This document shows, piece by piece, positions 184-25,892 of a DNA stretch of 28,440 nucleotides. Below the pieces are notes generated by a model, which saw only the letters and a program-made list of their open reading frames with translations, searched no databases and was not told the origin of the DNA. A program made the position numbers and the translations under genes. Source of the stretch: Candidatus Rifleibacteriota bacterium (GTDB lineage Bacteria; Muiribacteriota; Ozemobacteria; Ozemobacterales; Ozemobacteraceae). Numbering within the stretch: the stretch's first letter is position 1; every line of letters begins with the position of its first letter. The stretch lies in the NCBI GenBank assembly GCA_024710355.1, contig JANJUX010000012.1, positions 64,001 to 92,440 on the forward strand, in the 5' to 3' direction.

Positions 184-2103
184 TCAGGTGCCGGAAAGAA
201 TCTTTCTGAAGAAGATCGCCTCTTTTTCGAGAGAATCGACGAGGTTGGCTTTCTGCCTGAATCCATGCGCTTCGGTGGGGTATTCGTAATATTCGTGCCG
301 GATGTGTTTGCTCGCGAGAATTTCGGCCATTTCGCGTGAATTCTCGGGCGGCACGACCTTGTCTTCTGAACCCTGGAAGATAATCATCGGACTTTTGAGG
401 TTAACGAGATGATTGATCGGCGACCGATCTTCGAAAATGTGGCGATGCGTGCTCATGGGCCCGCCGAGAAGTCCCTCAAGGTAACGCGATTCGAATTTGT
501 GGGTCAGATTCTGCAGGGTGACGAGATTGCCGATGCCGAAATAACTGGCGCCGGTGGCAAACATCTCAGGAAACATCGTAAGCAGTCGTTGTACCGTATA
601 GCCGCCGGCACTGCCGCCAGAAACCACAGCTTTGTCACCGATCATGCGCTTTTCGCGCAGGTATTGCAGACCGTCTTTGACGTCGCTGATCTCAAGAACT
701 CCCCATTCGCCAAGCAGTGCGTCACGATAGGCCCTGCCAAAACCGGTTGAACCGCGATAGTTAACGTCGAAAATCGCATAGCCCTGGCTGGTCCAGAAGA
801 CATGCTCGCGGCTGAAACCGGCTCGTGCCAGGCTGGTCGGGCCGCCGTGCACGAGAACCCTTACCGGCGGGAGCTCCCCTTCGGGAGTTTTGTAATTGCT
901 GTTTTTCGGGGGGTAGAAGTAACCGTGGCATAACTGGCCATCACTGGTTGGAAAGCTGATTTTTTCGGGGCTGCTGATGTCTGCAGCCGAAATATGGCAT
1001 TCTGATGTGTGCCGTAGAATTTCGAGACTGGCATTTTTCTTTATCAGGGCCAGCTGAGTTGGCCTGTCAGCGGGGGTTCCGGTCAGGGCTAGATTTTCGC
1101 CACATACGACTGGCTTCGATATCGACAGAAACGGCGTCGGCAGTTCGGTTAAACTGCCGCTTTCAGCGTCAACCCAGGCCAGACCAGGCATTCCGTCGTT
1201 GAATGTCAGGGCAAGAATCCTGTCTGCAACGTGCAGAATATAGGCAATCTCATGCCCGGCCGCTGTTATGCGCTTTGTAGAGCCATTGTGCCAGGTGTAA
1301 ATGTTGAAAAAATTATCGGTCGAATTCTGCCCGGCCCCTTTTCGGTCGATGCTGTAGCGTATTTCGCCGTTACTGTTGAAGGAAAAGTCGCTTATCGCTT
1401 CACTGTCTGAGCCGGCAATTCTGCACAGGGCCTTCTGGTTCACTTCGCCGTCGGCAAAGGGAGAGCAACAGAGAACCGTTGAATCCCAGGGCATATAGGG
1501 GTGATTCCATTGCAGCCAGGCGATATTTTTGCCGTCCGGCGAAAAAAACGGCTGTTTGTAAAAATCGGCACCGCACACCAGAATTTTGGGCTCCTGAATG
1601 CCAGGTTTTTGCAGGTCCAGAAGGCAGAGAGCGTTTTCTGGCTCATTGTGCCCGCCTTCAAGCTCAAAAGCTGCAACCAGCCAGCGGCCATCAGCAGACA
1701 CGGCTGGCTGCATGAACTTCATCATCCGGCCGTCGGCGGCCTTTTCGGGGGTAATGGGGGCCGGAGTTTCGCTTTTACCGAAATCAAAGGCATAAAGGCG
1801 CTGATCAGAGAAGTTGGCGAATATAACCCGGGTTTCAGTCGTGACGTAAGGCATGCCGCCGTATTCCATGACCCTGGTTCTCGCTGAAAAAGGCGCGGGC
1901 AGCAGTTCTTTGATTGTGCCGTCGGGAGTGCGCAGCATGATGACGCAGCGACCTTTCTCTTCGGGGCGCATTTCAACCCAGAACAGCCTGCCGGCCGCAT
2001 CGCCGGAGAGAAATGAAAAATTCACGGTTGCCTGAAAGACTTCTTCGGCGCTTATTGCCGGTTTCCAGGTGAGATATGACGCTGTGACTGGTGCGCTGTG
2101 CAT
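184..2103 (-). CDS. S9 family serine peptidase (dipeptidyl aminopeptidase / acylaminoacyl-peptidase type): N-terminal beta-propeller plus C-terminal alpha/beta hydrolase.
   Basis: Nucleophile elbow VVSGGSAGGYT (GxSxGG) with downstream D/H region (EYYEYPTEAHGF). The ORF track extends to 2280, but AAGGAGA sits 7 nt before the Met at 2103 (MHSAPV...). The longer N-terminus would overlap the upstream gene by 157 nt. Confidence 0.85.
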   Translation of the reverse strand: MHSAPVTASYLTWKPAISAEEVFQATVNFSFLSGDAAGRLFWVEMRPEEKGRCVIMLRTPDGTIKELLPAPFSARTRVMEYGGMPYVTTETRVIFANFSDQRLYAFDFGKSETPAPITPEKAADGRMMKFMQPAVSADGRWLVAAFELEGGHNEPENALCLLDLQKPGIQEPKILVCGADFYKQPFFSPDGKNIAWLQWNHPYMPWDSTVLCCSPFADGEVNQKALCRIAGSDSEAISDFSFNSNGEIRYSIDRKGAGQNSTDNFFNIYTWHNGSTKRITAAGHEIAYILHVADRILALTFNDGMPGLAWVDAESGSLTELPTPFLSISKPVVCGENLALTGTPADRPTQLALIKKNASLEILRHTSECHISAADISSPEKISFPTSDGQLCHGYFYPPKNSNYKTPEGELPPVRVLVHGGPTSLARAGFSREHVFWTSQGYAIFDVNYRGSTGFGRAYRDALLGEWGVLEISDVKDGLQYLREKRMIGDKAVVSGGSAGGYTVQRLLTMFPEMFATGASYFGIGNLVTLQNLTHKFESRYLEGLLGGPMSTHRHIFEDRSPINHLVNLKSPMIIFQGSEDKVVPPENSREMAEILASKHIRHEYYEYPTEAHGFRQKANLVDSLEKEAIFFRKILSGT

Positions 2104-2123
2104 TTGAATGTCTCCTTTGCCTG

Positions 2124-3143
2124 TCAGCTGTCTTTGCGGTTGAGAACGCACTGTGGGTCGTCGCCGAGCGGGTCGCCCGAAAGGGCCCGCGCCAGAGCCC
2201 GGCACCCAGGGCAGTCGTCGTATGGGCATGAGCCGCAGGCTATGCCATGCAGTTTTGGCCTTATGCGGCTGCATTCCCATTCTGCCAGCCGCAGTCTGAT
2301 TGCAGAGAATGGCTCATGCAGGATATTGCCGACCGGAATCTGCAGGCGGCGGCACGGAAAAACGGTGCCGTCTGGCATCAAAGCCATCGATTCATGCCCG
2401 AGATTGCATAAAGCGGCTTCAAGCATGTCTTCTGGTTCTGCTTTGCCATTGGTAACCAGGCCAAAAGCCCGGCATGCAGCCAGTTCGTCGGGGTCGATTT
2501 CGAGACCGGCAGCGGCGCCGATGCTTCTTATGGCTTTATACCAGTCATCTGCCGACAACAATGACTCTGAAATGTCCAGACCTGTGCCCAACGGTATGAA
2601 GCGCTCGAAGAGAATGTCGTCAGCGCCGGTTTCTCTGGCGAAGTCGACCGTTTCTTTTATCGTTTCACAGTTGAGGCGCGAGAGTGTCATCATCAGCGTC
2701 ACCGATTTGCCGGTGATTTCGCGGTAGAGTGGAATCGTGCGGCGCAGACCGCTCAATGAGCCGGTCCCGCGGATGAAATCGTTGATTTTTTCATCACCCG
2801 ATTCGAGAGAGATTCTGAATGATCGCAGACGCTGAAAACTGCCGAGTCTGGTCAAAAGCGCCCGGTCTTCGATGGTGCCGTTGGTGATGATATTTATTTC
2901 GGCGAGGTTTTCGTAGCTTTCAAGGTGAGCGATAAGGTCAGTCAGGTCAGGCAGAAGCAAGGGTTCGCCGCCGGTAAGATTGACGGTTACCGGTTCATTG
3001 GGGATCGCCGCCAGAACAGCATCTGCTGCCAGACGTCGTCTGTCTGCCCCGTCAGACAAACTCTCGCGTTCATGTGCATTTTGATAACAGTGCCGGCACC
3101 GGCGATTGCACAGATCGGTCAGATGCCACTGAAACCCAAACAT
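2124..3143 (-). CDS. Radical SAM enzyme with C-terminal SPASM/twitch-like Cys cluster (peptide-modifying maturase or anSME-like).
   Basis: N-terminal CNRRCRHC (Cx3Cx2C) at residues 12-19. C-terminal DGTVFPC and CGSCPYDDCPGC motifs are typical of SPASM auxiliary cluster ligands. The protein is 339 aa. The 20-nt gap to the peptidase gene contains an RBS, so the two are an operon. Confidence 0.85.
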   Translation of the reverse strand: MFGFQWHLTDLCNRRCRHCYQNAHERESLSDGADRRRLAADAVLAAIPNEPVTVNLTGGEPLLLPDLTDLIAHLESYENLAEINIITNGTIEDRALLTRLGSFQRLRSFRISLESGDEKINDFIRGTGSLSGLRRTIPLYREITGKSVTLMMTLSRLNCETIKETVDFARETGADDILFERFIPLGTGLDISESLLSADDWYKAIRSIGAAAGLEIDPDELAACRAFGLVTNGKAEPEDMLEAALCNLGHESMALMPDGTVFPCRRLQIPVGNILHEPFSAIRLRLAEWECSRIRPKLHGIACGSCPYDDCPGCRALARALSGDPLGDDPQCVLNRKDS

Positions 3144-3176
3144 TCAGTCACCACCAGATATGATAAAAAGGCCCGG

Positions 3177-3272
3177 TCAGGAACATAACACTTTAAGCGG
3201 TCTGCAACAAGCCATTTTCTGCCTGAACGGTGCCTTTGCGGGAATGGCCCGGAAGAATGACCGTGCCATCAT
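3177..3272 (-). CDS. Candidate small Cys-containing peptide (31 aa: MMARSFFRAIPAKAPFRQKMACCRPLKVLCS). It may be a precursor or substrate for the adjacent rSAM/SPASM enzyme.
   Basis: I translated this ORF by hand from the minus strand between the MFS stop (3283) and the rSAM start (3143). It falls below the six-frame track length cutoff. It has a basic N-terminal half and a C-terminal CC...C cluster. There is no convincing Shine-Dalgarno, so this is speculative. Confidence 0.25.
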   Translation of the reverse strand: MMARSFFRAIPAKAPFRQKMACCRPLKVLCS

Positions 3273-3282
3273 CGTGGCATAT

Positions 3283-4593
3283 TCAAGAATTATTGAGGTT
3301 TTCGGCAGCCTGCTTTTCTCTCTGGATACGGGCTCTGTTTGTCCAGGTGTGTGGCAGAAGCACGAGCATCAGCCAGCCGATCAGCATCAAAACGATAGCC
3401 AGACCAAATGCCGCCTGAAAAGCGGCTGTTTCTCTGGTGCCGTCAGGTGATACCCAGCCGATGATCAGGCCCATGACCCACATTCCGAGGCCGCCGCCGA
3501 CGAAACCGGTGAAATTGTAGACGCCGAGGGCGGTGCCGGCCATCGAGGCCGGAAAACACTCGCGTGCAATGCCGAAACTGATCGAAAAGAAGCCGGCGCA
3601 GAAACCCATAACCGCGAGCAGCGGAATCAGATAGCTCTGCATTGTTGAAGTGGCGAAAACCAGAGGTACCCAGCACAGCAGATAGCCGAACATTCCGGCT
3701 GTCAGAACCGTGTGGCGCCGCTGAACCGATTTCCCGGCCAGAATGCCGGAGACGATTGCCCCGAGCATCAGGCCAAGGGCAAGCCAGGTCAGGGCATAGC
3801 CGACCGATGTGTCTGGCATCTGATAGATGCGCTTGAGAAATGGGCCGGCCCAGAGGCCCTGAAAACTGATTATCGTGGTTTCGAAAGCGAAGAAGTAGAG
3901 AGTTACGGCCCAGAATCTTTTTGATTTGAGCATGCCGCGCAGGCCTGAACGCTCGCCCGGTTCCACTGTTTCGTCAGAGTCGTGGTGCTTTGCAGAACCG
4001 GCTTCTGGCCCACTTTCTTTTGGGCGTTCAGATTCTGGTGGCTGGTCTTTGACCACGAGCCAGACAAATATCACCAGAAGCAGGGTAATGACGCTGACGA
4101 GTTCCATCGTGGCCCGCCAGCCCCAGACGCTTTTTATTACAGCCAGCGGCCATGTCGAACTCAGTGCGCCAAGGTTGCCTACTGCCAGCATCATGCCGGT
4201 CATAAATACAAAAGATTCGCCGCCAAACCAGCAGCCCATAAGTCTGAGCGCCGGCACATAAACGCAGCCGACCCCGGCACCGACCAGCCAGCGCGATAGA
4301 ACCGCCGTTTCGAATGAAGCCGCCTTGCCGAAAGCAAAGGCGCCGAGGCTTGCCAGCAGCAGAAACAGTGATATGGTCTTGCGGGCACCCCAGCGGTCTG
4401 AAAGGATGCCGACCGGTATCTGTACCGTTGCATAGCCAAGCAGATACATCGATGAGAGAAAACCGAGTGCTGCCGGTTCAAGGCCAAGGTCGGCGGTGAG
4501 GTCGCCGGCCATTACCGCAGTGCAGAACCGATGAAACATGACAAAGAAATAGGCAATCGCCAGAACCCAGAATATGGCCCACTTTCTTGTCAT
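3283..4593 (-). CDS. Major facilitator superfamily transporter, 12-TM type.
   Basis: MFS motif A (GILSDRWGARKT), multiple hydrophobic helices and a central cytoplasmic loop rich in charged residues. RBS AAGGAAAG precedes the ATG. Confidence 0.85.
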   Translation of the reverse strand: MTRKWAIFWVLAIAYFFVMFHRFCTAVMAGDLTADLGLEPAALGFLSSMYLLGYATVQIPVGILSDRWGARKTISLFLLLASLGAFAFGKAASFETAVLSRWLVGAGVGCVYVPALRLMGCWFGGESFVFMTGMMLAVGNLGALSSTWPLAVIKSVWGWRATMELVSVITLLLVIFVWLVVKDQPPESERPKESGPEAGSAKHHDSDETVEPGERSGLRGMLKSKRFWAVTLYFFAFETTIISFQGLWAGPFLKRIYQMPDTSVGYALTWLALGLMLGAIVSGILAGKSVQRRHTVLTAGMFGYLLCWVPLVFATSTMQSYLIPLLAVMGFCAGFFSISFGIARECFPASMAGTALGVYNFTGFVGGGLGMWVMGLIIGWVSPDGTRETAAFQAAFGLAIVLMLIGWLMLVLLPHTWTNRARIQREKQAAENLNNS

Positions 4594-4744
4594 TGCGGCT
4601 TTCCTTGTTAATGTTCTCTTTACTTAAGCTTGCCTGTAAAGAAGCGTTTATGCAACTATTTTCTGATAGGACTGCCGGTTTTCCGCTTCGGGTATTTCTG
4701 TTACAATCGTCTGCATAATTTTGCTCAGACAGGGAAGAAATCTT

Positions 4745-5434
4745 ATGACCTTTTCATTATCGCCCAGAAAAAGTCTGAAAGTCGTGCTGTTGCTGGCAGT
4801 GCTTTTTCTCGTGCTGGCTGTTGAACCTCAGCCATTGCAGGCAGATGATATCGAGAAACAGATGCGCGAACTGCTCGCTGAGGCTGGCCCTTTCCCTGAG
4901 GCGGTTGCCAGGCCGCGCGACCCTGTAAACACTGAGCTGACGATTCGTGAAAGATTTAATCGTATCTGGAACAATTTTCTGGGCTTCAGGGTCACCTATG
5001 CGACCGCGAGAGGTAAAGCCTGCCACGCAAACCAGCGGGTAATCGCCGGTGCGATTGAAATGTACAACATGGATAACGCGACGATGATGAAAACATTGCG
5101 GCACGACGACGCCGTTATGGCCTCGGGAGCGCTGGTCAGGGGCCTTTACCTTAAGAATGGGATTCGCCCGCCTGAATCTGACTGTGAATATTTCAGTTTT
5201 GGTGATCTGACAAAAAATGGCATAGTTTATTGCCGGCGACATGGCACGATTGAACCGTATTATAAAGCCATAGCAAAGGTTGCTGGTGTTAAAATGCCTG
5301 TCGATGAGCGGGCAGAAAATCTTCAGATTGCTTTGGCCGGCATGGTCGGTCTGATTCTGATCTCAATGGCGGTTCTGATCGTTCTGTTTTTCAGTCGCCG
5401 CCAGTCGTCAGAGGCATCAGACGCAGATAAATAG
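4745..5434 (+). CDS. Secreted/membrane-anchored protein with a GspG-like (T2SS major pseudopilin) globular segment. It has an N-terminal Sec-type signal peptide and a C-terminal TM anchor.
   Basis: AIEMYNMDNATMMKT...GLYLKNGIRPPESDCEYFSFGD resembles the conserved GspG/PulG ALDMYKLDN...YPTT...DPWG..Y..FSLG region, from memory. The N-terminus (MTFSLSPRKSLKVVLLLAVLFLVLAV) is a classical signal peptide, not a prepilin G-FTLxE leader. The C-terminal hydrophobic stretch is IALAGMVGLILISMAVLIVLFF. The start was moved to the Met at 4745, which has GGGAAGAAA upstream. Confidence 0.55.
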   Translation: MTFSLSPRKSLKVVLLLAVLFLVLAVEPQPLQADDIEKQMRELLAEAGPFPEAVARPRDPVNTELTIRERFNRIWNNFLGFRVTYATARGKACHANQRVIAGAIEMYNMDNATMMKTLRHDDAVMASGALVRGLYLKNGIRPPESDCEYFSFGDLTKNGIVYCRRHGTIEPYYKAIAKVAGVKMPVDERAENLQIALAGMVGLILISMAVLIVLFFSRRQSSEASDADK

Positions 5435-5539
5435 GCCTTTTTTGCCGGTTCTGTTTTTTGGCAGGTTTTATTTGAATCTGAGTGCCAAAAAAGGTTATAG
5501 TTAGAGCAATACATAGAAAGTTTCAAGTTCTGCAAAGTC

Positions 5540-6619
5540 ATGTCATGCTTTAAGCGGCAGTTAACCTGCTTTCGCCCGCGCAACAGCGGTTTCGTTTTTC
5601 CGCTGATTCTTTTTGCATCCCTGGCGGTCGGCCTGTTTATTCTGACGCTTACCCAGTATCAATCAGCGAATCGAGTCAAGCTTCAGCATCTCAACGACTA
5701 CCAGGGTGCATTTAACATCGCCTGGTCGGCACTTGTCGAAGTGCTGGCCGACATTCAGGCGAAGCAGTGGAGCAACCGTTCTTTTAAATCCGGGCCGAAA
5801 GACAAGTCTGCCAGCCTGTTCGGCGGCAGTTACAATCTCAGGGTGGCTGACCATGATGTGGCGCAGTATCTGTTCAATGTTAAAGTCAGGGTGAGCTTTA
5901 AAAACAAAAATCACCTGTTCTACTGGCGCATGAAATACAACCCGAATTTGCTCGATTTTACCAATCTTTTCATACCTGTCTGCTATGATGACATGCTCGA
6001 TGAGCCTGGTGCGGCGCCTGGCGATATCGATGCAATCGTCGATGATATGCTCGAAACCCGTGAAGAGAACCGTGAGAAGGCCGAAGAGATCGCCAAAGCC
6101 ATCAAAGCGACGCCGACTCTTAAGGAGGCACTGCAAAAAATCGGCATCAAACCCGACAAAGTCAAGGATGCCGACAAGCCAAGACCAGCGCCCCCAACGG
6201 TGCCGACTGCGCCGACTCCGCTGACGCTGAAAGATATCGCGGCCCTGGCTACCGGTGCTGACCCTGAAGTGGTCTTTGCAATCAAAGATTTTCATTTTGG
6301 TGGTGACGTCGCAGTGCTTACCGAAGAACAGAAAGACCTGCTCGACGCTATGGCTAAAATTCTTGCCGACCGGCCCGAGATTAAAATCGAGCTGCGTGGC
6401 CATACGACCGGTCTGGTTGGTACCGCCGAAAGCAATCTTGAATTCTCGATTCAGCGGGCACAGAACGTGGCCGACTATCTTATCAGTGTTGGTATTGCAT
6501 CTGAAAGGCTCACAGTTAAAGGTTTTGGTCGCGATAAACCGCTCGCCAGCAACGACACAGAGGCCGGTCAGACGAAAAACCGCCGCGTCGAATTCGTTCT
6601 TTCATCCACATCAAGTTAG
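5540..6619 (+). CDS. OmpA/MotB-like peptidoglycan-binding protein with N-terminal TM helix and Pro-rich linker.
   Basis: C-terminal OmpA-like domain (TAESNLEFSIQRAQNVADYL...GFGRDKPLASNDTEAGQTKNRRVEFVL). The linker is KPRPAPPTVPTAPTP, and the N-terminal hydrophobic helix is FVFPLILFASLAVGLFIL. Confidence 0.8.
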   Translation: MSCFKRQLTCFRPRNSGFVFPLILFASLAVGLFILTLTQYQSANRVKLQHLNDYQGAFNIAWSALVEVLADIQAKQWSNRSFKSGPKDKSASLFGGSYNLRVADHDVAQYLFNVKVRVSFKNKNHLFYWRMKYNPNLLDFTNLFIPVCYDDMLDEPGAAPGDIDAIVDDMLETREENREKAEEIAKAIKATPTLKEALQKIGIKPDKVKDADKPRPAPPTVPTAPTPLTLKDIAALATGADPEVVFAIKDFHFGGDVAVLTEEQKDLLDAMAKILADRPEIKIELRGHTTGLVGTAESNLEFSIQRAQNVADYLISVGIASERLTVKGFGRDKPLASNDTEAGQTKNRRVEFVLSSTSS

Positions 6620-6651
6620 TTACAGCCGCAGCGGAGTTTGGGTTACCGACT

Positions 6652-7224
6652 ATGAAAAATCGATCTGACAGAAGTTCTTTAACGGCCGCAAGTAGCGGTT
6701 TTACGGTATTGGAACTCGTGGTTGTCGTCGGCATAATGGCTCTGCTGGCGGCAATGGTATTCGGCATGTTTTCTACGACCAGTTCCAACCAGCAGAAGGT
6801 TTCGACCGACATGCAGATGCAGGCAATGATACTTAACTCGCAAAATCGCATCGTAAGAGCGGTCAGAGAAGGCATCGATTTTATTCTGCCCGAACTTGGT
6901 GAAGAGTCGGCTGCCCTCTTTTTTGCTGACAGTGAAAATAACATCAGGGTGCTCTATCAGCAGAAAGACGAAGAACTGTCAAAACGCACCGGCAAAACTT
7001 TGTACAAGCTCGTTCATCAAAAGGTTGAAACGAAAGGCTTTAATAGCAGCAGCCCGGCATCTGACCCGAAAATGTCGTCGACGGTTGCCGAGTATGTTAA
7101 AGACATCAAATTTCGCGTTTCAAGCGCCAATACGGTCAATGTTACCGCCAGTTTTGCGACCGAGCGCGCCGAATTTCAGACAATGTTCGAGATTGGCCTG
7201 CAGAATTCGGGAGTTGTTGAATGA
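6652..7224 (+). CDS. Prepilin-type N-terminal cleavage/methylation domain protein (pseudopilin / type IV pilin-like), 190 aa.
   Basis: Class III signal: charged leader, then G|FTVLELVVVVGIMALLAAMVF (G-F-T-x-x-E motif followed by a hydrophobic helix). Confidence 0.8.
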   Translation: MKNRSDRSSLTAASSGFTVLELVVVVGIMALLAAMVFGMFSTTSSNQQKVSTDMQMQAMILNSQNRIVRAVREGIDFILPELGEESAALFFADSENNIRVLYQQKDEELSKRTGKTLYKLVHQKVETKGFNSSSPASDPKMSSTVAEYVKDIKFRVSSANTVNVTASFATERAEFQTMFEIGLQNSGVVE

Positions 7225-8498
7225 ACCAGCGAGCAAACCGTGGTATGACACTGCTTGAACTGCTGATCGGCTTTTTTCTGCTGGTTTCGGCCTCGATTAT
7301 TTTTTTTCAGGCCATGCACAGCTTTAAAAAAGAAACCACCTTTACTTCGGAAAATTTCCTCGCGGCTTCTCTGACTGAAAAAGTGCTCGAGCAATGCTAC
7401 CAGGAGGCCGACCTGAACCCGCATGGCCTGCAGGCAATCGGTCTGGCCGATGCCGACGGCGCGCTCTACCCGTTTTCGACCTTTGTGACTGACAGAGAGA
7501 CAATTTTCTTTTCGAACCCGGGCATAACCGACACCGAAACCCCTAATCTACACAAGGTTCTCAAAGAAAATTTCAACCTCAAGGTGTCTGGTGAGAAGAA
7601 ACCCGGGTTTTATGAAATCAACGCCGGTTTTAACTGGAAAGCTGGTTCAGGCAAGGGCGGTTCGTTTGCCTCTACCCGTATTCTCTCGTTCACCGGCGAA
7701 AAGGAAGTGCTGACCACCTTCGCTTTGTCGGATACCGAGGTGAAAAACCGCCTGGTAAAAGATGTGTTCAACGCGCCCGGTGCCGCCCTCGGCAGCAAAG
7801 TCAGCAGTGCCGGTGCCGAAAAACTGCTGCTCAGCGTCGGGCATGTCTATTACACCTGCCTCGACTGGTTGAATTCTTCCGAGTTCAAAGACCGCTATCA
7901 GAAAGCCCGCAGCCTCGAAATTATTTCGTCACCTGCATCTGAAGACTATGCTGACTGCACCCGCATGTATTTTGAGCTCGCCAGAGACATGCTGCATCTT
8001 ATGATGAGTCTGAAAGGGCATGCAGAAGAGGCGGGCAAAGACATCAGCTTTCTTGCCGCCCTTCCGAAAACTGAGAAATACATCGTCGAGAGTCGTATCG
8101 AACGCGGTGGCCTGTTTTATCGCCAGCTGCGCCGTCTTTTCTTCAATTGCCTTTTCAGGGTTGCTGAGCGTTACGAGCAGCAGAGCAGGCATTCCGGGTC
8201 GCCAAAGCAACAGCGCCAGCTGATTGTGCGGCTGTTCAACATCAACCGGATTCTCTATGCCAATCGCAGCTTCAGCGATGAGGTTCCGGCAGCTGAGATC
8301 GAAAGCCGTTACCGCGATTTCATCACGAGAATGCAGACGGCGTTTCGTGATGCCGACCCTTCGATTTTTCGCCTTGCCGACCAGGAAAAGACGTTTATCA
8401 CCGCCGGCAATCTCAAAGACCGCTTTTTCATGTTGAAGTTGACCGGCGAGCTTTTTGCCACCATCGATAAATTTCTGACGGTTCTCGACCCGGCCTAA
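7221..8498 (+). CDS. Large prepilin-type N-terminal domain protein (minor pseudopilin-like), 425 aa.
   Basis: MNQRANRG|MTLLELLIGFFLLVSASIIFF matches the prepilin peptidase motif. Its start overlaps the upstream pseudopilin stop (ATGA), implying translational coupling. Confidence 0.75.
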   Translation: MNQRANRGMTLLELLIGFFLLVSASIIFFQAMHSFKKETTFTSENFLAASLTEKVLEQCYQEADLNPHGLQAIGLADADGALYPFSTFVTDRETIFFSNPGITDTETPNLHKVLKENFNLKVSGEKKPGFYEINAGFNWKAGSGKGGSFASTRILSFTGEKEVLTTFALSDTEVKNRLVKDVFNAPGAALGSKVSSAGAEKLLLSVGHVYYTCLDWLNSSEFKDRYQKARSLEIISSPASEDYADCTRMYFELARDMLHLMMSLKGHAEEAGKDISFLAALPKTEKYIVESRIERGGLFYRQLRRLFFNCLFRVAERYEQQSRHSGSPKQQRQLIVRLFNINRILYANRSFSDEVPAAEIESRYRDFITRMQTAFRDADPSIFRLADQEKTFITAGNLKDRFFMLKLTGELFATIDKFLTVLDPA

Positions 8499-8520
8499 AG
8501 GTTTTCTGCCAGACAAAAAT

Positions 8521-8547
8521 ACCCGGCCTTCACATTCCGGGCCGGGT
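8521..8547. terminator. GC-rich hairpin (ACCCGGCC / GGCCGGGT, 11-nt loop) between convergent genes. The T-tract is on the minus strand, so it most likely terminates the ALDH transcript.
   Basis: Perfect 8-bp stem. On the minus strand it is followed by ATTTTTG. The plus-strand tail is weak (TAAATAC). Confidence 0.45.
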
Positions 8548-8627
8548 TAAATACGCTTTAAGTGGCTGATGCGGTTATTTTCGCGTCAATACTTCACAGG
8601 ATGTCTTAAATGCGGCAATCAAGACGT

Positions 8628-14101: not shown

Positions 14102-14968
14102 TCAGTCTTCCCCGTTATCAACAGGGGATTCTGGAATCATTTCGTTGGCGGTATCGTCGTCGAATTCACTGGAAAAATCGAAAACGGCATCAGGAAAACG
14201 TTTTCGCAGCTCTTCCTGGTCTTTGAGCTTCAATGCCGCATTGCCCATGGCAATATTGAGGCCTTTCAGATTTTTAAGTGAATCAGGCAGTCTGGTACCG
14301 CCGTTGGAGTTGATTGTAAGGTTTTTCAGATTCTTAAGATTGCCGACAAACTCTGGCAGTTCTTTGATGCCGTTATAATCCAGATTCAGGGTGACAAGTT
14401 TTGCAAGAGAGGCAACCTGCGGCGGCACTTCATTGAGCCCGTTTCTGCCAATATCGAGAACTTCAAGATTTTGAAGAGCTCCCAGAGCCTGCGGCAGCTT
14501 TTTTGCCTTAACCGGTTCGCCTTTTTCGTTTTCCATAATACCCGAAGCGTCGAAAGCCCCGTAGAGACGCAGAATTTTCAGCTTCTCAAGACCGGCAATC
14601 GTTTCAGGCAGCGAGACATTCATCTGGTAGCCATTGCCGTTGTCGATAACGATGCTTTCAAGGTTCTTGAGATTGCCGAGTTCCTTTGGCAGTTCTTCCA
14701 GTGCTTCAAGGCCGCCGATATTCAGTTCTTTCAGATTGGTCAGGCTGCCAAAGGCTTCGGGCAAAAGTTTCAGAGAAAAGTCCGGGTTGTTTTCTTCGAC
14801 CGGTTCAGCCGCATCTTCCTGATATACTGCCCCAAGATCCAGTCTTGTAGCTTTTTCGGGGTTAGCCAGGGCCTCTGACAGATGTTTGTATGTTTCGGCC
14901 TGTGCTGAAACCGAAGAGCCGATTGCAAAAGCGATAAGCAGAGCACATACCTGTTTTAGTGAAGGCAT
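14102..14968 (-). CDS. Secreted leucine-rich repeat (LRR) protein.
   Basis: Signal peptide MPSLKQVCALLIAFAIGSSVSAQA. Repeated LxxLxxLxLxxN units follow (LTNLKELNIGG, LGNLKNLESIVIDNG, LQNLEVLDIGRNGL, LAKLVTLNLDYNGI, VGNLKNLKNLTINSNG). RBS AGGAG is present. Confidence 0.8.
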   Translation of the reverse strand: MPSLKQVCALLIAFAIGSSVSAQAETYKHLSEALANPEKATRLDLGAVYQEDAAEPVEENNPDFSLKLLPEAFGSLTNLKELNIGGLEALEELPKELGNLKNLESIVIDNGNGYQMNVSLPETIAGLEKLKILRLYGAFDASGIMENEKGEPVKAKKLPQALGALQNLEVLDIGRNGLNEVPPQVASLAKLVTLNLDYNGIKELPEFVGNLKNLKNLTINSNGGTRLPDSLKNLKGLNIAMGNAALKLKDQEELRKRFPDAVFDFSSEFDDDTANEMIPESPVDNGED

Positions 14969-14973
14969 GATAA

Positions 14974-15750
14974 TTACTCCTGATCGTTATAGGTTTTCCA
15001 ATATGGTTCCATGTCGATGCCGGCCGCTTTGCACGCAGATTCAAACACGTTCGCCTGGTCTCCGAGAACCATTTTTTCAATGATGGGGCCGGCTTCCATT
15101 GCGTTGGCGTCGGTTTCGTGGCCATTGGCGCGCCAGACCTGTTTGATCTGCTGTATGAGGGCGATTTTGCCGGCTTCGTCGAGGAGCTGCCAGTCGAAAA
15201 TATCTTTCGTCACAAGGTTTTTGACGTGCTCCTTGTCGAGTTTCGGGGCGTTGTCTGCCTTTTTGGCAGGTTCTGCCGCCGGTGCTTCAGAGCCTTCGAG
15301 CGGGTCGGTAATTGATTCGCAGATCATCGGGCCGGTACTGGCGTCATCGGCCGGCGAAATGCACATGAATACCGGTCCTGAGGGCTCTTTATATTTGAAC
15401 AGGATGCCTCTGGCATCGTCAGAAACCACGGTAGTCAGCGGCGATTGCAGCTGCAGGCCCTTGACCTGCCCAAAGCTCACCTGTGGCTGGCACACGGAAA
15501 ACACATTCGTGACCTTGTTATTTTCGTAGCCAAGCATTCCCATCATCAGAAAATCGGGAGAGTCTGAGATGAGCCAGGTGTCGAGCTCGCCTGCATCAGC
15601 TGGTTTGCCGAGCATTTTGTGAGCTTCTTCTCTGGAAACCCCAATAAAGCTGGTTTCGGTCCAGAATTTCGCCGTAATTGCTTCGGCACTGCCGGCTGCG
15701 ATAATTAACAGAACGAAGACGAGAATGATAATACTGTTGCGGTTTTTCAT
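14974..15750 (-). CDS. Hypothetical secreted protein (signal peptide, no known domain).
   Basis: MKNRNSIIILVFVLLIIAAGSAEA signal peptide. RBS AAGGAA. It lies 5 nt upstream of the LRR gene. Confidence 0.6.
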   Translation of the reverse strand: MKNRNSIIILVFVLLIIAAGSAEAITAKFWTETSFIGVSREEAHKMLGKPADAGELDTWLISDSPDFLMMGMLGYENNKVTNVFSVCQPQVSFGQVKGLQLQSPLTTVVSDDARGILFKYKEPSGPVFMCISPADDASTGPMICESITDPLEGSEAPAAEPAKKADNAPKLDKEHVKNLVTKDIFDWQLLDEAGKIALIQQIKQVWRANGHETDANAMEAGPIIEKMVLGDQANVFESACKAAGIDMEPYWKTYNDQE

Positions 15751-15755
15751 TGATT

Positions 15756-16400
15756 TTATTCCTTGTTATCTGTGGGAGTGGCTGATTCTGAGGCAACAGG
15801 TGTGGCTTCGTCGGCAACGATTTCGGTCGGAAGATATTCGACGAGAATGTGGCGTTCATCCTGAGCTTTGATCAAAGCTGAGAACTTACCGGCGACGCTT
15901 ACTTCTTCACCGGCTTTTTCCCATTCTGCGGGAGTTGCATGTACATCGGGCGTGCCACCTGAACCGGTGCTGTAAATGGTGCCGCTGGCTTTGAAGGTGT
16001 CACTGCCAATGTCTTCGAGCGTGTCGAGCTGTGAGAAAACAAACATATCGCCATCGGCAACCGGTATTGAATATAATTTTTCCTTGTGCTGCGAAGGCTT
16101 CTGCCCGAAGTATTTTATCGCTGCCGTGTCAACCTGCTCAGTGGTCGCCGTGACATAATACCCGTCTTTAGAGGGTTTCAGCGATTTGAATTTGTTGAGA
16201 TACAGGTGCCGAAGAGCAAAGTCGATCATCGCCTGGTCGGTCAACGCACCCTGCGAAAAGCTTGCCACATGGGCTTCAGAGAAGTTGCTGAAAAATACGT
16301 TCAGGTTCTTCTGCAGAGCCGGTTCGAGCTGCATCGGCTCTGCCAGACCCATCGAGGCCACGGTCATTATTACTGCCAGTAAAGTCAGGATTTTTCTCAT
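15756..16400 (-). CDS. Hypothetical secreted protein.
   Basis: MRKILTLLAVIMTVASMGLAEP signal peptide. RBS GGAGA. The gap to the next gene is 5 nt. Confidence 0.6.
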   Translation of the reverse strand: MRKILTLLAVIMTVASMGLAEPMQLEPALQKNLNVFFSNFSEAHVASFSQGALTDQAMIDFALRHLYLNKFKSLKPSKDGYYVTATTEQVDTAAIKYFGQKPSQHKEKLYSIPVADGDMFVFSQLDTLEDIGSDTFKASGTIYSTGSGGTPDVHATPAEWEKAGEEVSVAGKFSALIKAQDERHILVEYLPTEIVADEATPVASESATPTDNKE

Positions 16401-16438
16401 TGAATTCTCCGTTTCAGATCATACTGTAAAGGTTCTGA

Positions 16439-17008
16439 TCACTTCGCCGACAGCGGAACGATGGTGAAGGAATAGGCGGTATCTTCACCATCACCACCGG
16501 TTCGCAGCGTAAATTTCCAGCCCTGGTGTTCCCATACGGTGTTTTGGTAGCCTTCTTCTTTTTCGCCGTCTTTGCCGGCTCCGGCATTTTTTTCAAGCCA
16601 TGTCTGCAGTTCTTTGTTCGGAACTTCTTCGCCGTCGATGCAGATTTCGGCGATTTTACCGGCTTCGTCCCAGTCGATGATAAGGGCTACCGGAGCTGAT
16701 TCGGTTTCGATCTGGAAATCATACTGCAGTCTGCTCGCTTCTTCCATTTCGGCAGCTTCGCCGAGAATCGGCGTCAATTTGGCAGCCAGGTCATCGCGAG
16801 TGGCGTCTCTGCCGATGAAGACTTCGGTTCCCTTCAGCATCAGCGGAAATTCTGCCGTGGCGCTGGCGACATCAGCTGTGACTGCGGTTGTTGATGCAGT
16901 TTCTACTGCTGCGGCTGCGGCGGGTTTGACTTCGACTCCGGCAAAGCTCTGACAGGCTGCTGCCACGATGAATGCGAGAGCGACGGTTGTGAATCTGGTG
17001 TTGATCAT
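16439..17008 (-). CDS. Hypothetical secreted protein with an Ala/Thr-rich linker.
   Basis: MINTRFTTVALAFIVAAACQSFAG signal peptide. RBS TGGAGAAAAAAAT. Confidence 0.6.
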   Translation of the reverse strand: MINTRFTTVALAFIVAAACQSFAGVEVKPAAAAAVETASTTAVTADVASATAEFPLMLKGTEVFIGRDATRDDLAAKLTPILGEAAEMEEASRLQYDFQIETESAPVALIIDWDEAGKIAEICIDGEEVPNKELQTWLEKNAGAGKDGEKEEGYQNTVWEHQGWKFTLRTGGDGEDTAYSFTIVPLSAK

Positions 17009-17049
17009 ATTTTTTTCTCCATGTGAAATTTTGTCAGCTGTATCTGCTG

Positions 17050-17790
17050 TTATTGCTGCGCCGGGGTGAATTTGCCGCTGATCGCCATATAGCGGAAGTT
17101 CGGGCCTTCAAAGCCGGGGCTGGTGTAAGAAACGATCACGACAATGCCGTCTTTGCAGCTGGTTACCCGGCGAACCTGGTAAGAAAGCGGATAGGCGCGG
17201 CTTTTTGGCAGACGCTTGTCTTCCTGAAGAATCTGTATGGTCCCGGAAGCTTCTTCAAGACCGGCAATCGACAGTTTGAGCATTTTTGCCGGGCCAAAAT
17301 CAGTCGGCATATCTTTGATGGCAGGTGTTGTGTCAGTGGTTTCGAGCCTGACTTCATATTTTGCGGTGATACCTGAGGCTCCGCCATCGATGCCGGGCGT
17401 CAGAGAGAAAATATTGCCGGTAAATGGGCTGTGGTCGGTCGGCAGGTGTACCAGAAGGTCTGAACCCTGATTTTCATTGACTTTCAGTGCGAAGCGTTCG
17501 AGTCTGGCGGCTTCGATTGCTTTTTTGAGTGCCGGTTCGGCTGAGCCCGCCTCGATATCTTTGTCTTCGGTCAACTCGGTGGCGCTGGTGGCGACCTGCT
17601 CATTTTTCAGAACATCGATTACCCACAGTTCCGCATATGGAACCCCTGAGCCATCGTGGATACCCATCTGGGCAAAAGCGTAATACTGGCCTGATTGAGA
17701 GAAACCGAGCGGCCGGAATTCGGCAATATCGCCGGCCTGGCAGCTGGCAACAAAAAAGAACATGGCAAGGGTGACTAAAATGCGTTTCAT
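17050..17790 (-). CDS. Hypothetical secreted protein.
   Basis: MKRILVTLAMFFFVASCQAGD signal peptide. RBS AGGAGAAAATA precedes the Met at 17790. The track ORF extends to 17844 without an RBS. Confidence 0.6.
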   Translation of the reverse strand: MKRILVTLAMFFFVASCQAGDIAEFRPLGFSQSGQYYAFAQMGIHDGSGVPYAELWVIDVLKNEQVATSATELTEDKDIEAGSAEPALKKAIEAARLERFALKVNENQGSDLLVHLPTDHSPFTGNIFSLTPGIDGGASGITAKYEVRLETTDTTPAIKDMPTDFGPAKMLKLSIAGLEEASGTIQILQEDKRLPKSRAYPLSYQVRRVTSCKDGIVVIVSYTSPGFEGPNFRYMAISGKFTPAQQ

Positions 17791-17810
17791 TATTTTCTCC
17801 TGGGGTGTGA

Positions 17811-18500
17811 TTATTTTCCGGGTCTGAATTCGATCAGTCGGCAATTGACTTCGCTGGTGGTTCCCTGATGTGAATAGATGTAGCCGGTAAAACCGACGCC
17901 ATGGGTAAATTTCCAGGTGGTTGTGTCCGGGCCGGTAGACAGGCTGATCGAAACTTCGTCGGGAGTGCCGGTAAGCTTCAGACCTTTTACCGCTGCGGCA
18001 GAAAACGGTGTTTTGCCTTCAACCCGGTAAACATACATCGGAATGCCCGAAAGCAGCTGCGCAGTTTCGCCGAAGGTTTTTTCTTCTACCAGCGGAAAAT
18101 CGAGCAGCAGATCAGCTTCGGTAACCGATTCGCCCAGGCTCTCGCCGGTGATGGCCTTTTCCCAGACCTCTTTGATTCTCTCGTCGCCCTGAATCAGATA
18201 GAGCCGCCAGGGCCCGGCCAGAATCATCAGAAATGGTGACGGTTTTTTGCCTTTTTCATAAAAGGTCAGGTCGCTCGGCAGGCCAGAGCCTTTTGCAAAA
18301 GTAATGTTTTCCCAGGCGGTTACCGAGGTTATTTCGGTTGTCCAGGTGAGGGTTTCGCTCAGTTCTTTGCCTTCAGAATCGGCTTTGACGTCGGCGCTGT
18401 AGACCCATGCGGTGCCGGTTGCCAGCTGCAGCGGCAGGCTTTCGGCTGCCGTTACGGTGAGGGAAATAAGACAGAAAATGACAATAAGAGCGTGTTTCAT
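17811..18500 (-). CDS. Hypothetical secreted protein (first gene of the secreted-protein operon).
   Basis: MKHALIVIFCLISLTVTAAESL signal peptide begins at the internal Met at 18500, with AGGA upstream. The longer track ORF (to 18713) has no signal-peptide logic. Confidence 0.6.
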   Translation of the reverse strand: MKHALIVIFCLISLTVTAAESLPLQLATGTAWVYSADVKADSEGKELSETLTWTTEITSVTAWENITFAKGSGLPSDLTFYEKGKKPSPFLMILAGPWRLYLIQGDERIKEVWEKAITGESLGESVTEADLLLDFPLVEEKTFGETAQLLSGIPMYVYRVEGKTPFSAAAVKGLKLTGTPDEVSISLSTGPDTTTWKFTHGVGFTGYIYSHQGTTSEVNCRLIEFRPGK

Positions 18501-18890
18501 AGGTTTAATCCTGCTTTTGGAGTAATTGTCCTGGCGGTGTCCTGCTAAAAACCGGAAAACTGGCTGGTTTATTTTGTGTACCCTCTGATCCTCTCTAAGA
18601 TTATGAAAAATATCACAAACTTCGCAAAGGTTCAAGTTTTTGCTCTTTGACTTTTCAAAGCCAGTTCTGATGCGAATCGGAGCGGTCGATTTTTCGTGTA
18701 AAGCTCGTTGCAAAGCTTGGTCAGGCGCAGCGGCAATTTATGTCATGGTTAAGGGTGGCCCGGCGCTCTGTGCGTAAAAATCAGTTGGTGAATCATTGCC
18801 GATCTGATAGACTCAGGTTTCACATACGGGGCTGTAATTGCCTGGATTTTTTGTGGGAACCTGTATTTTCGAACAAAAGGGGACATAAAG

Positions 18891-19487
18891 ATGAAAAGAA
18901 ATTTCAATCACCTGATTCTTGCAGTATTACTCGCTTTTACCGCACCGGGCTTTGCCGGCGAAGTTAAGCCGGCTGATGCTGCCGGGCAGCCGGTGACCGA
19001 ACAGGCCGCTGTAACTGAACAGGCTGCTGTAAATCAGGAAACCGACATCGATATAAATAACCCGATTGAAAAAGCCTTCGCCAAAGATTTTGAGATGGCC
19101 CAGGCCACCCCGGAAATCAATTATGTGAACGAAGCTTATCTCGAAGCCTGGAAGGCGGAGATGGCCAATGCCGCCGCAGTTGTTAAAAAATCACTGCCAC
19201 ATCAGGATGACGGCAAGCGGGTTGATGAGTATGTTGCCGTCGGCAGCGCTCTTGCAGACAAAGCCTTTGAACTTGAAATGCTCAACTGGATTTCAGACCC
19301 CGAAGCGCCGATTGCCGACCGTTCTTTCGGAACCGGCGCCACCGGCGGTGCCATGCTTGCTCAGGCCAGAGTCTATAAACAGGTGACTTTGAATCTGATC
19401 ACGCATTATCAGGCAAATCCAGATATGGCTTATTCCTTTATCTACAGCGGCAAAGGCGCCGATCTCGAAAAACTCAGAGCACAATAA
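18891..19487 (+). CDS. Hypothetical secreted protein. It is divergent from the secreted operon and has a short tandem repeat PVTEQAAVTEQAAV.
   Basis: Signal peptide MKRNFNHLILAVLLAFTAPGFAGE. RBS AAAGGGGA. Confidence 0.6.
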   Translation: MKRNFNHLILAVLLAFTAPGFAGEVKPADAAGQPVTEQAAVTEQAAVNQETDIDINNPIEKAFAKDFEMAQATPEINYVNEAYLEAWKAEMANAAAVVKKSLPHQDDGKRVDEYVAVGSALADKAFELEMLNWISDPEAPIADRSFGTGATGGAMLAQARVYKQVTLNLITHYQANPDMAYSFIYSGKGADLEKLRAQ

Positions 19488-19662
19488 CTCTCTGATTCGA
19501 AGAAATCCCGTTCAATAAAATAAACCGACTCGGCTTTTGTCGAAGCTTACTGGCTTTTGAAGAAGCTGTCAGAAATGTTTTCTCTGCAAATATGTCGGGT
19601 ACTGTCTATGGTTGACGCCCTGTAAATTCAGGCTGCCGCATTTTATCTTGCCCGGAAATAGA

Positions 19663-21138
19663 TCAATGTGAGTCAGGCGGTTGTATTTGTTCTTTGATCC
19701 AGTCGGTTACAAGGCTCAGAGTCTCAGTTGCCACGGTTTCTGCAAGCGGGTAAGTTGCAGAGGCATATTTGACCGGTCTGCGCATCTGGTGGTCTAAATC
19801 TGGAAAAGTGTGGATTTTGAATGACGGGCATTGACTGGCACGCAGATGTTTTTCAAGTTCGGCTGCATTAGGTTCTGGCAGAACATTTTCGTCTAAGCCT
19901 GCAAAGACGCCAAGGACCGGGCAGGAAATCCCCCGATATGACGCGGCAGGGTCGAAAACTGCCATGAATAGCATCCAGGGACTGCACCATTCTTGTAATT
20001 CATTTTCTATGCCGATCTGTCCTTTTTCTCTTGCTGGAAACCCGATCATTACACGGTCTTCTTCTGACAGGCCGGCAAGAAAAGATGTGTAAAAAGTTCT
20101 GAAAATCAACTTGTCTGAGTTGTCTCTTGAGATTTTCACAAGTTTCTGCCAGGCTTCGGCTTCAAACTTTCTGCGCAATTCTGCCTGTCGCTCATTGGTT
20201 CCTTTTCTGCGGTTTATCGAAGGGGCCTGCTGTTCCCATATTTTGCTGATTGGAAAAACCGGCGGAGCCAGCAGAACCAGAAAGTCGACAGACCGACATT
20301 CTGAAGCGACCATGGCGGCAACCAGACCGCCTTCGCTGTGCCCGAGAATGCCGGTTCGGCTGACTTCGGGGCGTTTCTTCAGAAAGTCGATGCAGGAACT
20401 GGCATCTGCCGAAAAATCTGCAGTGGTAGCTTCATTAAAAATGCCTTCTGAGCCGCCAACGCCCCGGTCGTCACAGCGAAGCACAACCAGGCCGCTTCTT
20501 GTCAGGTGGTCGGCCCAGACCAGGAACGGGCGATGGAAATAACATTCTGAATCGCGGCCCTGAGCATGCTGGCCGTTTAAAAGGAGAATGGCGGTATAAG
20601 ATCCTGGCTCAGCAGGTCTGGTGATGGTGCCTGCCAGTTCGGGCCGGTTGTCTTTGCCGGGTATTATGACCTCCTCGACCAGATAGGGAAACGGCGGCCA
20701 GGGGTGCTGCTTCGTGAACATGAAGGCTGGAGTTGCCACTGAGTTCATCGTCAGCCACCATGAAGTGTAAGGTTCTTCATTCCAGGCGCCAGTGATTGTG
20801 TTTGAAGCAATTGTTCCTGAAAAAGAAACGTTTCTGGTTGAGATTCTGAAGCTTAACTGGTTTCCCGATAGTTTCAGGTGGTCAACCGGGCCGGCCCAGC
20901 CCGGCCGCGAGGCGGTAACACTCATTTTCGGCTGTTTCCCGTCTGTGGACATCTGCAGGTAGAAGTGCAGCGGAAATTTGTCCGCTTCAAGGCGCCCTTC
21001 CCAGAAGGTCGTGGAACCGGGAGTTATTGCCGGTGCATTCGTCGCCTCTTGTTCGCCGCAGCCGCAGAAAAGTGTTGCCAGCAAAATGCCGATAATCGCG
21101 GCTGCATAAGTTTTATTCCGGTTAAAACATTTTTTCAT
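19663..21138 (-). CDS. Alpha/beta hydrolase fold protein, probable lipoprotein (S9/dienelactone-hydrolase-like esterase or peptidase).
   Basis: Nucleophile elbow ILGHSEGGLVAA (GxSxG). N-terminal hydrophobic leader ending in CGC (AIIGILLATLFCGCG). A beta-rich N-terminal domain precedes the hydrolase fold. Confidence 0.75.
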   Translation of the reverse strand: MKKCFNRNKTYAAAIIGILLATLFCGCGEQEATNAPAITPGSTTFWEGRLEADKFPLHFYLQMSTDGKQPKMSVTASRPGWAGPVDHLKLSGNQLSFRISTRNVSFSGTIASNTITGAWNEEPYTSWWLTMNSVATPAFMFTKQHPWPPFPYLVEEVIIPGKDNRPELAGTITRPAEPGSYTAILLLNGQHAQGRDSECYFHRPFLVWADHLTRSGLVVLRCDDRGVGGSEGIFNEATTADFSADASSCIDFLKKRPEVSRTGILGHSEGGLVAAMVASECRSVDFLVLLAPPVFPISKIWEQQAPSINRRKGTNERQAELRRKFEAEAWQKLVKISRDNSDKLIFRTFYTSFLAGLSEEDRVMIGFPAREKGQIGIENELQEWCSPWMLFMAVFDPAASYRGISCPVLGVFAGLDENVLPEPNAAELEKHLRASQCPSFKIHTFPDLDHQMRRPVKYASATYPLAETVATETLSLVTDWIKEQIQPPDSH

Positions 21139-25576: not shown

Positions 25577-25723
25577 AGCCTGGGTGATTTCGGGCCATTA
25601 TGAATAAAGGGTGCATCTATGGCCTTTGTAATATCTGATTTACCGTCGTCAGGCCAAGACGCTGATGCTTTTGCTGATTGCATATACATTCTACCACGCC
25701 GGCAAAAAACAGGCCAAATAATT

Positions 25724-25733
25724 CGATGAAGGC
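25724..25733. repeat. Left copy of the 10-bp direct repeat CGATGAAGGC (putative target-site duplication).
   Basis: Identical to 25883-25892. It abuts the left TIR. Confidence 0.5.
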
Positions 25734-25882
25734 CAGGGCAAACGCATTAAATTCATGGATTCCGGGTCTACGCCCGGAATGACGGAACCGGATTACGTCA
25801 TTCCCGCGTTTATGCCCGGAACGGGTACAGGCGGGAATCTGGTCCAATTGAGATTCTAAGGTGTTTTAATGCGTTTGCCCTG
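25734..25882. mobile_element. Non-coding MITE-like element, 149 bp, with perfect 18-bp terminal inverted repeats (CAGGGCAAACGCATTAAA / TTTAATGCGTTTGCCCTG) and nested internal palindromes.
   Basis: I verified the TIRs by reverse complement. The element is immediately flanked by a 10-bp direct repeat CGATGAAGGC (25724-25733 and 25883-25892), consistent with a target-site duplication. It has no coding capacity. Confidence 0.55.
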
Positions 25883-25892
25883 CGATGAAGGC
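25883..25892. repeat. Right copy of the 10-bp direct repeat CGATGAAGGC (putative target-site duplication).
   Basis: Identical to 25724-25733. It abuts the right TIR. Confidence 0.5.

Follow-up and report, generated by a model that had tools for sequence, protein, structure and literature searches.

Here we describe a three-gene cassette coding for pilin-type proteins in a 28,440-nucleotide stretch of DNA (hereafter the window) from a Candidatus Rifleibacteriota bacterium of the family Ozemobacteraceae (GenBank assembly GCA_024710355.1, contig JANJUX010000012.1, positions 64,001 to 92,440 of the forward strand). Its genes, termed B, C and D, encode respectively a protein predicted to fuse a GspK-like pilin fold to an OmpA-like domain, a small prepilin-type protein, and a large prepilin-type protein with a C-terminal all-helical module. 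Conservation of B-C-D as a unit is strongly supported by comparison with related loci. We give an even chance to the interpretation that the three proteins are a minor-pilin set, i.e., a tip or priming complex of the GspK-I-J or PilX-V-W type, for a type IV filament machine whose genes lie elsewhere. We favor it because one pilin lacking Glu5 is co-translated with two that possess it, all three having pilin-type N-termini and two bearing grafted modules.

A preliminary description, made from the nucleotide sequence alone, had joined these genes with the gene just upstream (A) into a four-gene orphan pseudopilin module. The open reading frames (ORFs) confirm four consecutive plus-strand genes, A-D, at 4745-8498. 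Their features are as follows, with coordinates given for the whole window, position 1 being its first letter:

4745-5434, plus strand: gene A, 229 aa, an ORF outside the cassette
5435-5539, plus strand: A-B intergenic region, 105 nt, with a promoter-like site at 5472-5501 (consensus match only)
5540-6619, plus strand: gene B, 359 aa, a modular minor pseudopilin with leader, predicted GspK-like fold, tether and OmpA-like domain
5591-5992, plus strand: predicted pilin-fold (GspK-like) module of B, residues 18-151, from structure and leader motif
6296-6583, plus strand: OmpA-like, putatively peptidoglycan-binding module of B, residues 253-348, from Pfam PF00691 and predicted fold
6652-7224, plus strand: gene C, 190 aa, small prepilin-type protein
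7221-8498, plus strand: gene D, 425 aa, large prepilin-type protein
7728-8495, plus strand: all-helical module of D, residues 170-425, a confident structure prediction with no assigned function

C and D overlap at the stop codon of the former and the start codon of the latter (ATGA at 7221-7224), and B is separated from C by 32 nt. Among the related loci that we compared (labeled L001-L027), homology of L007 to the window restarts at window position 5461, indicating that the A-B intergenic region moves with B-C-D. Judged from this arrangement, B-C-D is probably its own transcription unit. Current annotations of the cassette proteins do not go beyond "hypothetical", "OmpA family" or an unspecific "type II secretion system protein".

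Protein B: a predicted GspK-like pilin fused to an OmpA-like domain

The N-termini of 30 B homologues share basic residues, a near-invariant Gly17, a [YF][VI]FP motif and a hydrophobic stretch, with no Glu at +5; GspK, too, lacks Glu5 (Korotkov & Hol 2008). In the AlphaFold2 model, B starts with a 58-residue helix (20-77) followed by five consecutive antiparallel strands (87-151), two helices at 160-201, a disordered Pro-rich tether (approximately 205-250) and an OmpA fold. Thus modeled, the N-terminal 150 residues form a pilin fold that is nearest to GspK. B resembles GspK in fold and leader type and is not a member of the T2SSK family: none of the 30 homologues matches T2SSK (PF03934) at E <= 1, the additional helices of the model come only after the sheet and do not form an alpha-domain inserted into it, and an N_methyl signature is not detectable in B. 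The C-terminal domain is recognized by PF00691 with 70.5 bits (cut-off 27.2) over residues 253-348 and displays the beta/alpha/beta OmpA_C fold. The preliminary description had correctly identified this domain, the N-terminal transmembrane (TM) segment and the Pro-rich linker, but it took B for a non-pilin anchor, which the GspK-like fold predicted for its N-terminal 150 residues contradicts.

The OmpA-like part of B also retrieves ZorB in PADLOC searches, which raises the possibility of a MotB/ZorB-like stator or an anti-phage system of the Zorya type. These matches cover only residues 280-355, and C and D have no PADLOC match. Moreover, no MotA/ZorA/ExbB-type partner is found in the window or among the Pfam-annotated neighbors of the cassette loci, and the TM segment of B (FVFPLILFASLAVGLFILTL) contains neither Asp nor Glu. 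On these grounds we rejected both the stator and the defense system, whose probability we consider next to nil.

Proteins C and D: prepilin-type subunits

C and D both possess class III leaders, as had been proposed for them. In C, this leader reads ...SSG/FTVLELVVVVG (the slash marks the cleavage site), and all 14 members of its family show an N_methyl match (best 5e-7) and a class III leader with invariant Phe+1 and Glu+5. In D, the leader is MNQRANRG/MTLLELLIGF, the N_methyl match extends to 26 of 28 family members, and Glu5 is again invariant. Although the window proteins themselves score below the Pfam cut-off of 21.2 bits (18.0 for C and 16.1 for D), the recurrence of the signal across both families indicates that it is not due to chance. 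A motif scan revealed no further class III leaders in the window. The leader of B is of the GspK/PilX-like kind without Glu5, and A has none.

Matches of C to PDB and NCBIfam entries (geopilin, PilA, GspG/GspH) are confined to the N-terminal helix. Residues 1-166 of D probably have a pilin-like topology, modeled as a helix with five or six strands, and its extra size is accounted for by the well-predicted C-terminal helical module. Thus, D is indeed unusually large, as first noted, but the accompanying statement that it has no recognizable pilin fold probably does not hold, the model of this region being of low confidence. Taken together, the type IV filament character proposed for the locus is real and stronger than had been claimed, with three pilin-type proteins instead of two, in addition to a GspG-like head in A.

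Conservation, copy number and taxonomic range of the cassette

To examine synteny, we compared the window proteins A-D by tblastn with 21 related loci. In every OmpA-type locus (i.e., with a cassette whose B carries the OmpA domain) that has enough flanking sequence (L001-L004, L007-L010, L012-L018, L020 and L021), B, C and D are adjacent and in the same order, their identity to the window proteins ranging from 51 to 92%. The genomic contexts are unrelated, for instance malic enzyme and M17 peptidase genes in L001 and an extracytoplasmic function (ECF) sigma factor cluster in L003. The cassette also occurs in multiple copies: Ca. Rifleibacterium amylolyticum has a tandem B-C-D-B-C-D (L003/L014), and two copies lie on separate contigs in both DAOPYA01 (L009, L015) and CAZPCO01 (L012, L019). 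These observations are best explained if B-C-D is an operon complete in itself.

Judging from public data, the D family is confined to one phylum. No public assembly gave an exact match to D. A word-index search recovered 35 homologues of D with 98-45% identity, all the named ones belonging to Candidatus Riflebacteria, Rifleibacterium or Ozemobacteraceae. A D profile hidden Markov model run against 1.84 billion representative proteins gave 70 matches, 39 of them below 1e-10; among the ten looked up, every named one came from Riflebacteria. The N-terminal half of B and protein A are likewise restricted to Riflebacteria, save for two records from metagenome-assembled genomes labeled Erysipelotrichia and Clostridiales. 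A scan of viral contigs yielded no D homologue and hence no hint that phages carry the gene. Nor were signs of a mobile element detected: repeats on either side of the cassette are short and chance-like, and neither tRNA genes nor integrase-like features are seen at the indels.

Gene A: an independent neighbor

The product of A consists of a Sec-type signal peptide, a spacer of ~55 aa, a head that we compare with GspG (KACHANQRVIAGAIEMYNMD ... YLK ... DCEY ... CRRHG) and a C-terminal TM anchor. The head motif of the family is K-x-C-x-x-N-Q-R-V-I-x-G-A-I-E-M-Y-N-M-D ... YLK ... C-E-Y ... C-x-x-H-G, with K91, C93, Q97, E105, M106, D110, Y135 and C147 invariant in the family alignment (A2). An hhalign comparison of the family with PulG gave a probability of 71.6% (E 3.5e-5, 60 columns) and pairs the alpha1-C helix and the "Y..lP.DPWG..Y" region. 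In a distant homologue (P0048), a true N_methyl leader (26.6 bits) directly precedes the same head. The GspG-like nature of the head, proposed at the outset, is thus moderately supported by the hhalign alignment and P0048. The rest of that comparison did not stand: A has no class III leader, neither A nor any of 17 relatives matches T2SSG (PF08334) or TIGR01710 in Pfam or NCBIfam, the N_methyl of P0048 is the sole pilin-family Pfam match among the relatives, and the A profile retrieves nothing from PDB sequences. A is therefore neither a GspG nor a polymerizable pilin.

The placement of A in a four-gene module with B, C and D, its GspG-like head working with the other three, can be evaluated using a single chromosomal slot between the MFS transporter and aldehyde dehydrogenase (Aldedh) genes, whose flanking proteins in close relatives are 85-97% identical to those of the window (85-96% for L006 and L007). 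In this slot, the window and L008 hold A together with B-C-D, L007 has B-C-D only, and L006 has A only. At the DNA level, the corresponding indels are clean: window 5341-8627 is swapped for 158 bp in L006, and window 4666-5460 for 58 bp in L007. Likewise, A (L005) and B-C-D (L018) lie on different contigs in HGW-Riflebacteria-2 (GCA_002839435.1). The four-gene module draws on the adjacency and common orientation of A in the window and L008, on its GspG-like head, and on an A-like gene that follows the second cassette of L003 at a distance of 2.4 kb. Against this, L008 is the only OmpA-type locus besides the window, among those whose flank reaches that far, with A upstream of B, and A has a Sec-type signal peptide and a C-terminal anchor in place of a class III leader. 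The block of four is therefore not conserved, as L006, L007 and HGW-Riflebacteria-2 illustrate, an outcome that the preliminary description had itself named as refuting its module. Only B-C-D is conserved, and we regard A as no part of the cassette and a joint four-gene function as very improbable.

A is just 53-72% identical between genomes in which the flanking proteins are 85-97% identical (window compared with L006 9962-10639 and L008 5547-6191). It appears to be a fast-evolving or replaced envelope protein, whose three conserved Cys and C-x-x-H-G motif could form a disulfide or metal site. A protein of 426 aa with two A-type (GspG-like) heads is encoded in L006 (4040-5338), directly downstream of an ECF sigma factor gene and a putative anti-sigma gene (138 aa). 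A similar trio of sigma factor, small ORF and ~390-aa protein occurs just upstream of B-C-D in L003 (5446-7567); the ~390-aa protein has no match to the A profile.

Divergent cassettes in other Riflebacteria

Beyond the OmpA-type loci, divergent members of the D family, which match the profile with E values of 1e-20 to 1e-30, also adjoin a C-like gene in other Riflebacteria, and three of the four such loci searched with the B profile contain a B-like gene (B') as well. Gene order varies, being C-D-B' in L022 and B'-C-D in L023. The B' proteins retain the GspK-like N-domain and carry other C-terminal modules after a Pro-rich stretch; hence, OmpA is one of several exchangeable modules. L022 further encodes a 1140-aa MshEN+T2SSE ATPase (16780-20202, minus strand) 5.4 kb from its C-D-B', the surrounding genes having no Pfam match, which shows that the phylum possesses a T2SSE-family ATPase. 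Two more prepilin-type genes (280 aa and 174 aa; leaders G/VTLVELL and A/LTMIEIL) are convergent to B'-C-D in L023 (11535-12886, minus strand) and are followed by a 666-aa gene without a Pfam match.

Genes for a CHASE2-SpoIIE (PP2C) membrane phosphatase and/or a FecR-domain protein lie next to or near the D-like gene in four of six divergent loci. The stop codon of D' overlaps the start of the phosphatase gene in L024 (11395-13365), where a CheA/CheW/response-regulator cluster follows; in L025 (11423-13959), the phosphatase gene comes directly after D' with FecR next; in L027 (850-3557), the pair is adjacent and divergently oriented; and FecR and SpoIIE lie within 9 kb in L026 (1-1918). This neighborhood hints at a signaling link for the divergent paralogues and suggests an alternative for the cassette at large, namely an envelope- or surface-sensing module in which the pilin-like triad is the periplasmic input of a signaling pathway and the helical module of D contacts a membrane sensor. 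The connection is one of gene neighborhood alone, however, in paralogues of ~25-30% identity. The OmpA-type cassettes, that of the window included, have no CHASE2/SpoIIE or FecR gene in their flanks, except that L020 has a SpoIIE domain of unrelated appearance at a distance of 7 kb. We therefore rate a sensing role of the cassette as quite improbable.

A possible minor-pilin tip or priming complex

If B-C-D is a minor-pilin set, a prepilin peptidase encoded elsewhere would cleave the three proteins, which would then assemble as a heterotrimer through their N-terminal helices in the inner membrane. Here, B would be the capping subunit, with an exchangeable C-terminal module (OmpA-like in this case) on its Pro-rich tether, C a small conventional subunit, and D a modular pilin displaying its 255-aa helical module. 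With an ATPase and platform protein, likewise encoded elsewhere, building the filament, the complex would seed it or form its cap. The OmpA module would fasten this tip complex to the cell wall and, with it, a short periplasmic filament or the machine itself. A genome with several paralogous cassettes would thereby have alternative tips at its disposal.

Several observations weigh against this model. The OmpA-type cassettes have no linked gene for a major pilin, ATPase, platform protein, secretin or prepilin peptidase in flanks of up to 8-10 kb per side, as far as the contig ends permit, which makes the partner machine hypothetical. In the window itself, Pfam scans of the real ORFs of at least 200 aa detected no T2SSE, T2SSF, secretin or Peptidase_A24 domain; the locus was thus rightly described as an orphan within the window, lacking ATPase, platform, secretin and prepilin peptidase genes. 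No Pfam pilin family matches the N-domain of B in any of the 30 members, so that its assignment is by structure and leader motif only. The globular parts of C and D match no Pfam or NCBIfam pilin family either, and the N-terminal fold of D is predicted at low confidence. Further, the residue at -1 is Gly in the C protein of the window but Ala in most C homologues, and Ala at this position is poorly processed by classical prepilin peptidases.

The contribution of the OmpA module is subject to similar reservations. In canonical OmpA-like domains, the Asp of the TD motif and the Arg of the SxxRA motif contact diaminopimelate, as is known from Acinetobacter baumannii OmpA. The Arg is conserved in B. 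In place of the Asp, the window protein has Thr (GHTTG, compared to GYTDN of Rv0899), with a one-residue insertion; most homologues share this Thr and some keep GHTD. With the Arg retained and the Asp replaced, peptidoglycan binding by B is likely, going by these residues, but not certain. We found no described precedent in the literature for a peptidoglycan-binding domain on a tip pilin, and nothing relevant on Riflebacteria pili or type II secretion systems (T2SS), or on OmpA-fused pilins.

The same features bear on a second interpretation, that of a filament-independent envelope tether or scaffold: a static inner-membrane complex anchored by the pilin-type helices and bound to peptidoglycan by OmpA, with no ATPase-driven polymerization. 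It would accommodate the fact that no machinery genes adjoin any OmpA-type cassette, and the Pro-rich tether and OmpA domain of B do resemble wall anchors of the MotB, TssL and Pal types. Riflebacteria are diderm Terrabacteria reported to be without Pal and to have OmpA only patchily (bioRxiv 10.1101/2021.05.31.446380), which also speaks for such a tether. Yet, the retention of Glu5 in C and D and its selective absence from B is the pattern expected of filament-stacking subunits rather than simple anchors. Moreover, OmpA is not universal on the B-like proteins of the wider family, and the cassette is accessory, being absent from its slot in L006, which is a poor fit to a core envelope tether. 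We therefore regard a static tether as unlikely.

A more novel reading is also conceivable. In this scenario, the triad would build or itself be the tip of a peptidoglycan-tethered periplasmic "endopilus", with the cap gripping the wall via OmpA, while sister cassettes swap that module and wire D to the CHASE2-PP2C phosphatase. Type IV pilin modules would thus have been repurposed in Riflebacteria for envelope-spanning anchoring or mechanosensing as opposed to a surface pilus or secretion piston. We offer this as a distinctly unlikely scenario.

Other features of the window

Upstream of A, on the minus strand, lie genes for an S9 peptidase, a radical S-adenosylmethionine (SAM)/SPASM protein and a major facilitator superfamily (MFS) transporter. 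This S9 prolyl-oligopeptidase, radical-SAM/SPASM and MFS set (184-4593) is a conserved trio resembling a peptide-maturation cluster, similar to those for ribosomally synthesized and post-translationally modified peptides. Parts of it adjoin B-C-D in several genomes in differing arrangements (also L009, L010 and L012). The listed S9 and radical-SAM ORFs share 157 nt, so that one of the two starts is probably mis-set.

Downstream of D are genes for an aldehyde dehydrogenase, a glutathione peroxidase, a B12-radical-SAM protein, a leucine-rich repeat (LRR) protein and others. A further operon for envelope or secreted proteins may lie at 14102-18713 on the minus strand, where six co-oriented genes code for an LRR protein, three ORFs of 189-258 aa without Pfam match, a secreted DUF2259 protein and an ORF of 300 aa. 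A gap of ~1.26 kb without any ORF of at least 150 aa (25604-26862), which has no Rfam or tRNA match, is flanked by a PAS histidine kinase/LuxR-type regulator pair and a protein with three BON domains. Neither tRNA genes nor Rfam RNAs were detected anywhere in the window.

Comparison with known systems

The closest functional parallel to B-C-D is the GspK-GspI-GspJ tip of the T2SS (PDB 3ci0) and its XcpX-V-W counterpart (5vtm). We propose that the cassette works alike, with the proteins not belonging to the same sequence families: none of them matches T2SSK, T2SSI or T2SSJ. The two systems also differ in architecture, in that B has a C-terminal tether and OmpA domain instead of an alpha-domain inserted into the sheet, and an extra helical domain sits at the C-terminus of D. 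In terms of genomic organization, the cassette is found without neighboring gspG, gspH or other T2SS genes, in multiple copies and in one phylum. Neither the window nor the annotated flanks of L001-L004 contain an ATPase, platform, secretin or peptidase gene, and the locus is accordingly not a complete T2SS or type IV pilus locus; a T2SSE-family ATPase was seen only near the divergent cassette of L022.

A second parallel is offered by the modular type IV pilins, the principle of which has been described for PilB, PilC, CofB, ComZ and GspK (PMC8179133). The cassette shares with Streptococcus sanguinis PilB (vWA) and PilC (lectin), enterotoxigenic Escherichia coli CofB, Vibrio cholerae TcpB and Thermus ComZ the layout of an N-terminal pilin module, a linker and a grafted C-terminal module; large size (about 420-520 aa) and a proposed tip location are further points of likeness (PMC8179133). 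The grafts differ: neither an OmpA-like domain nor a novel helical bundle features in the architectures that the text of that study discusses, and neither was found in supplementary files accompanying it (PMC8179133). Additionally, B has no detectable N_methyl signature, unlike those pilins. Our literature search found no description of an OmpA-fused pilin or of the helical module of D.

In Myxococcus xanthus and Pseudomonas, multiple clusters of minor pilins and PilY1 provide alternative tip complexes for one machine, away from its core genes. The several paralogous cassettes per genome in Riflebacteria, with no core machinery genes beside them, can be likened to these in their organization; they differ in having no PilY1-like protein and three genes rather than four pilins and PilY1. 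Relative to wall anchors with OmpA-like domains (MotB, TssL/TagL, PomB and YiaD), B is distinguished by a complete predicted pilin fold between the TM helix and the linker, by its class III-like leader and by having no MotA/TssM-type partner. As lineage-specific, multi-copy prepilin-type cassettes, those described here also recall the Verru_Chthon cassette proteins A-D (TIGR02596-02600), which form paralogous pilin-like cassettes in Verrucomicrobia and Chthoniobacter. Membership of that group was rejected, the match of C to TIGR02596 being sub-threshold (E 0.02, 15 bits against a cut-off of 70) and limited to the N-terminus.

Given that the modular-pilin concept is already known, what is new here is best called a minor-pilin cassette that is specific to one lineage, present in several copies, gained and lost, and equipped with unusual grafted modules. 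The function of type IV filaments depends on their minor-pilin tip complexes, and their versatility is attributed mainly to modular pilins. If borne out, the fusion of a GspK-like cap pilin with a peptidoglycan-binding domain would add a new type of module and point to a periplasmic, wall-attached role, in a cassette confined to one uncultured phylum of diderm Terrabacteria and gained or lost between close relatives. B, C and D thus constitute a small and concrete set of proteins for structural work, of use both to specialists in type IV filaments and for the annotation of Riflebacteria genomes.

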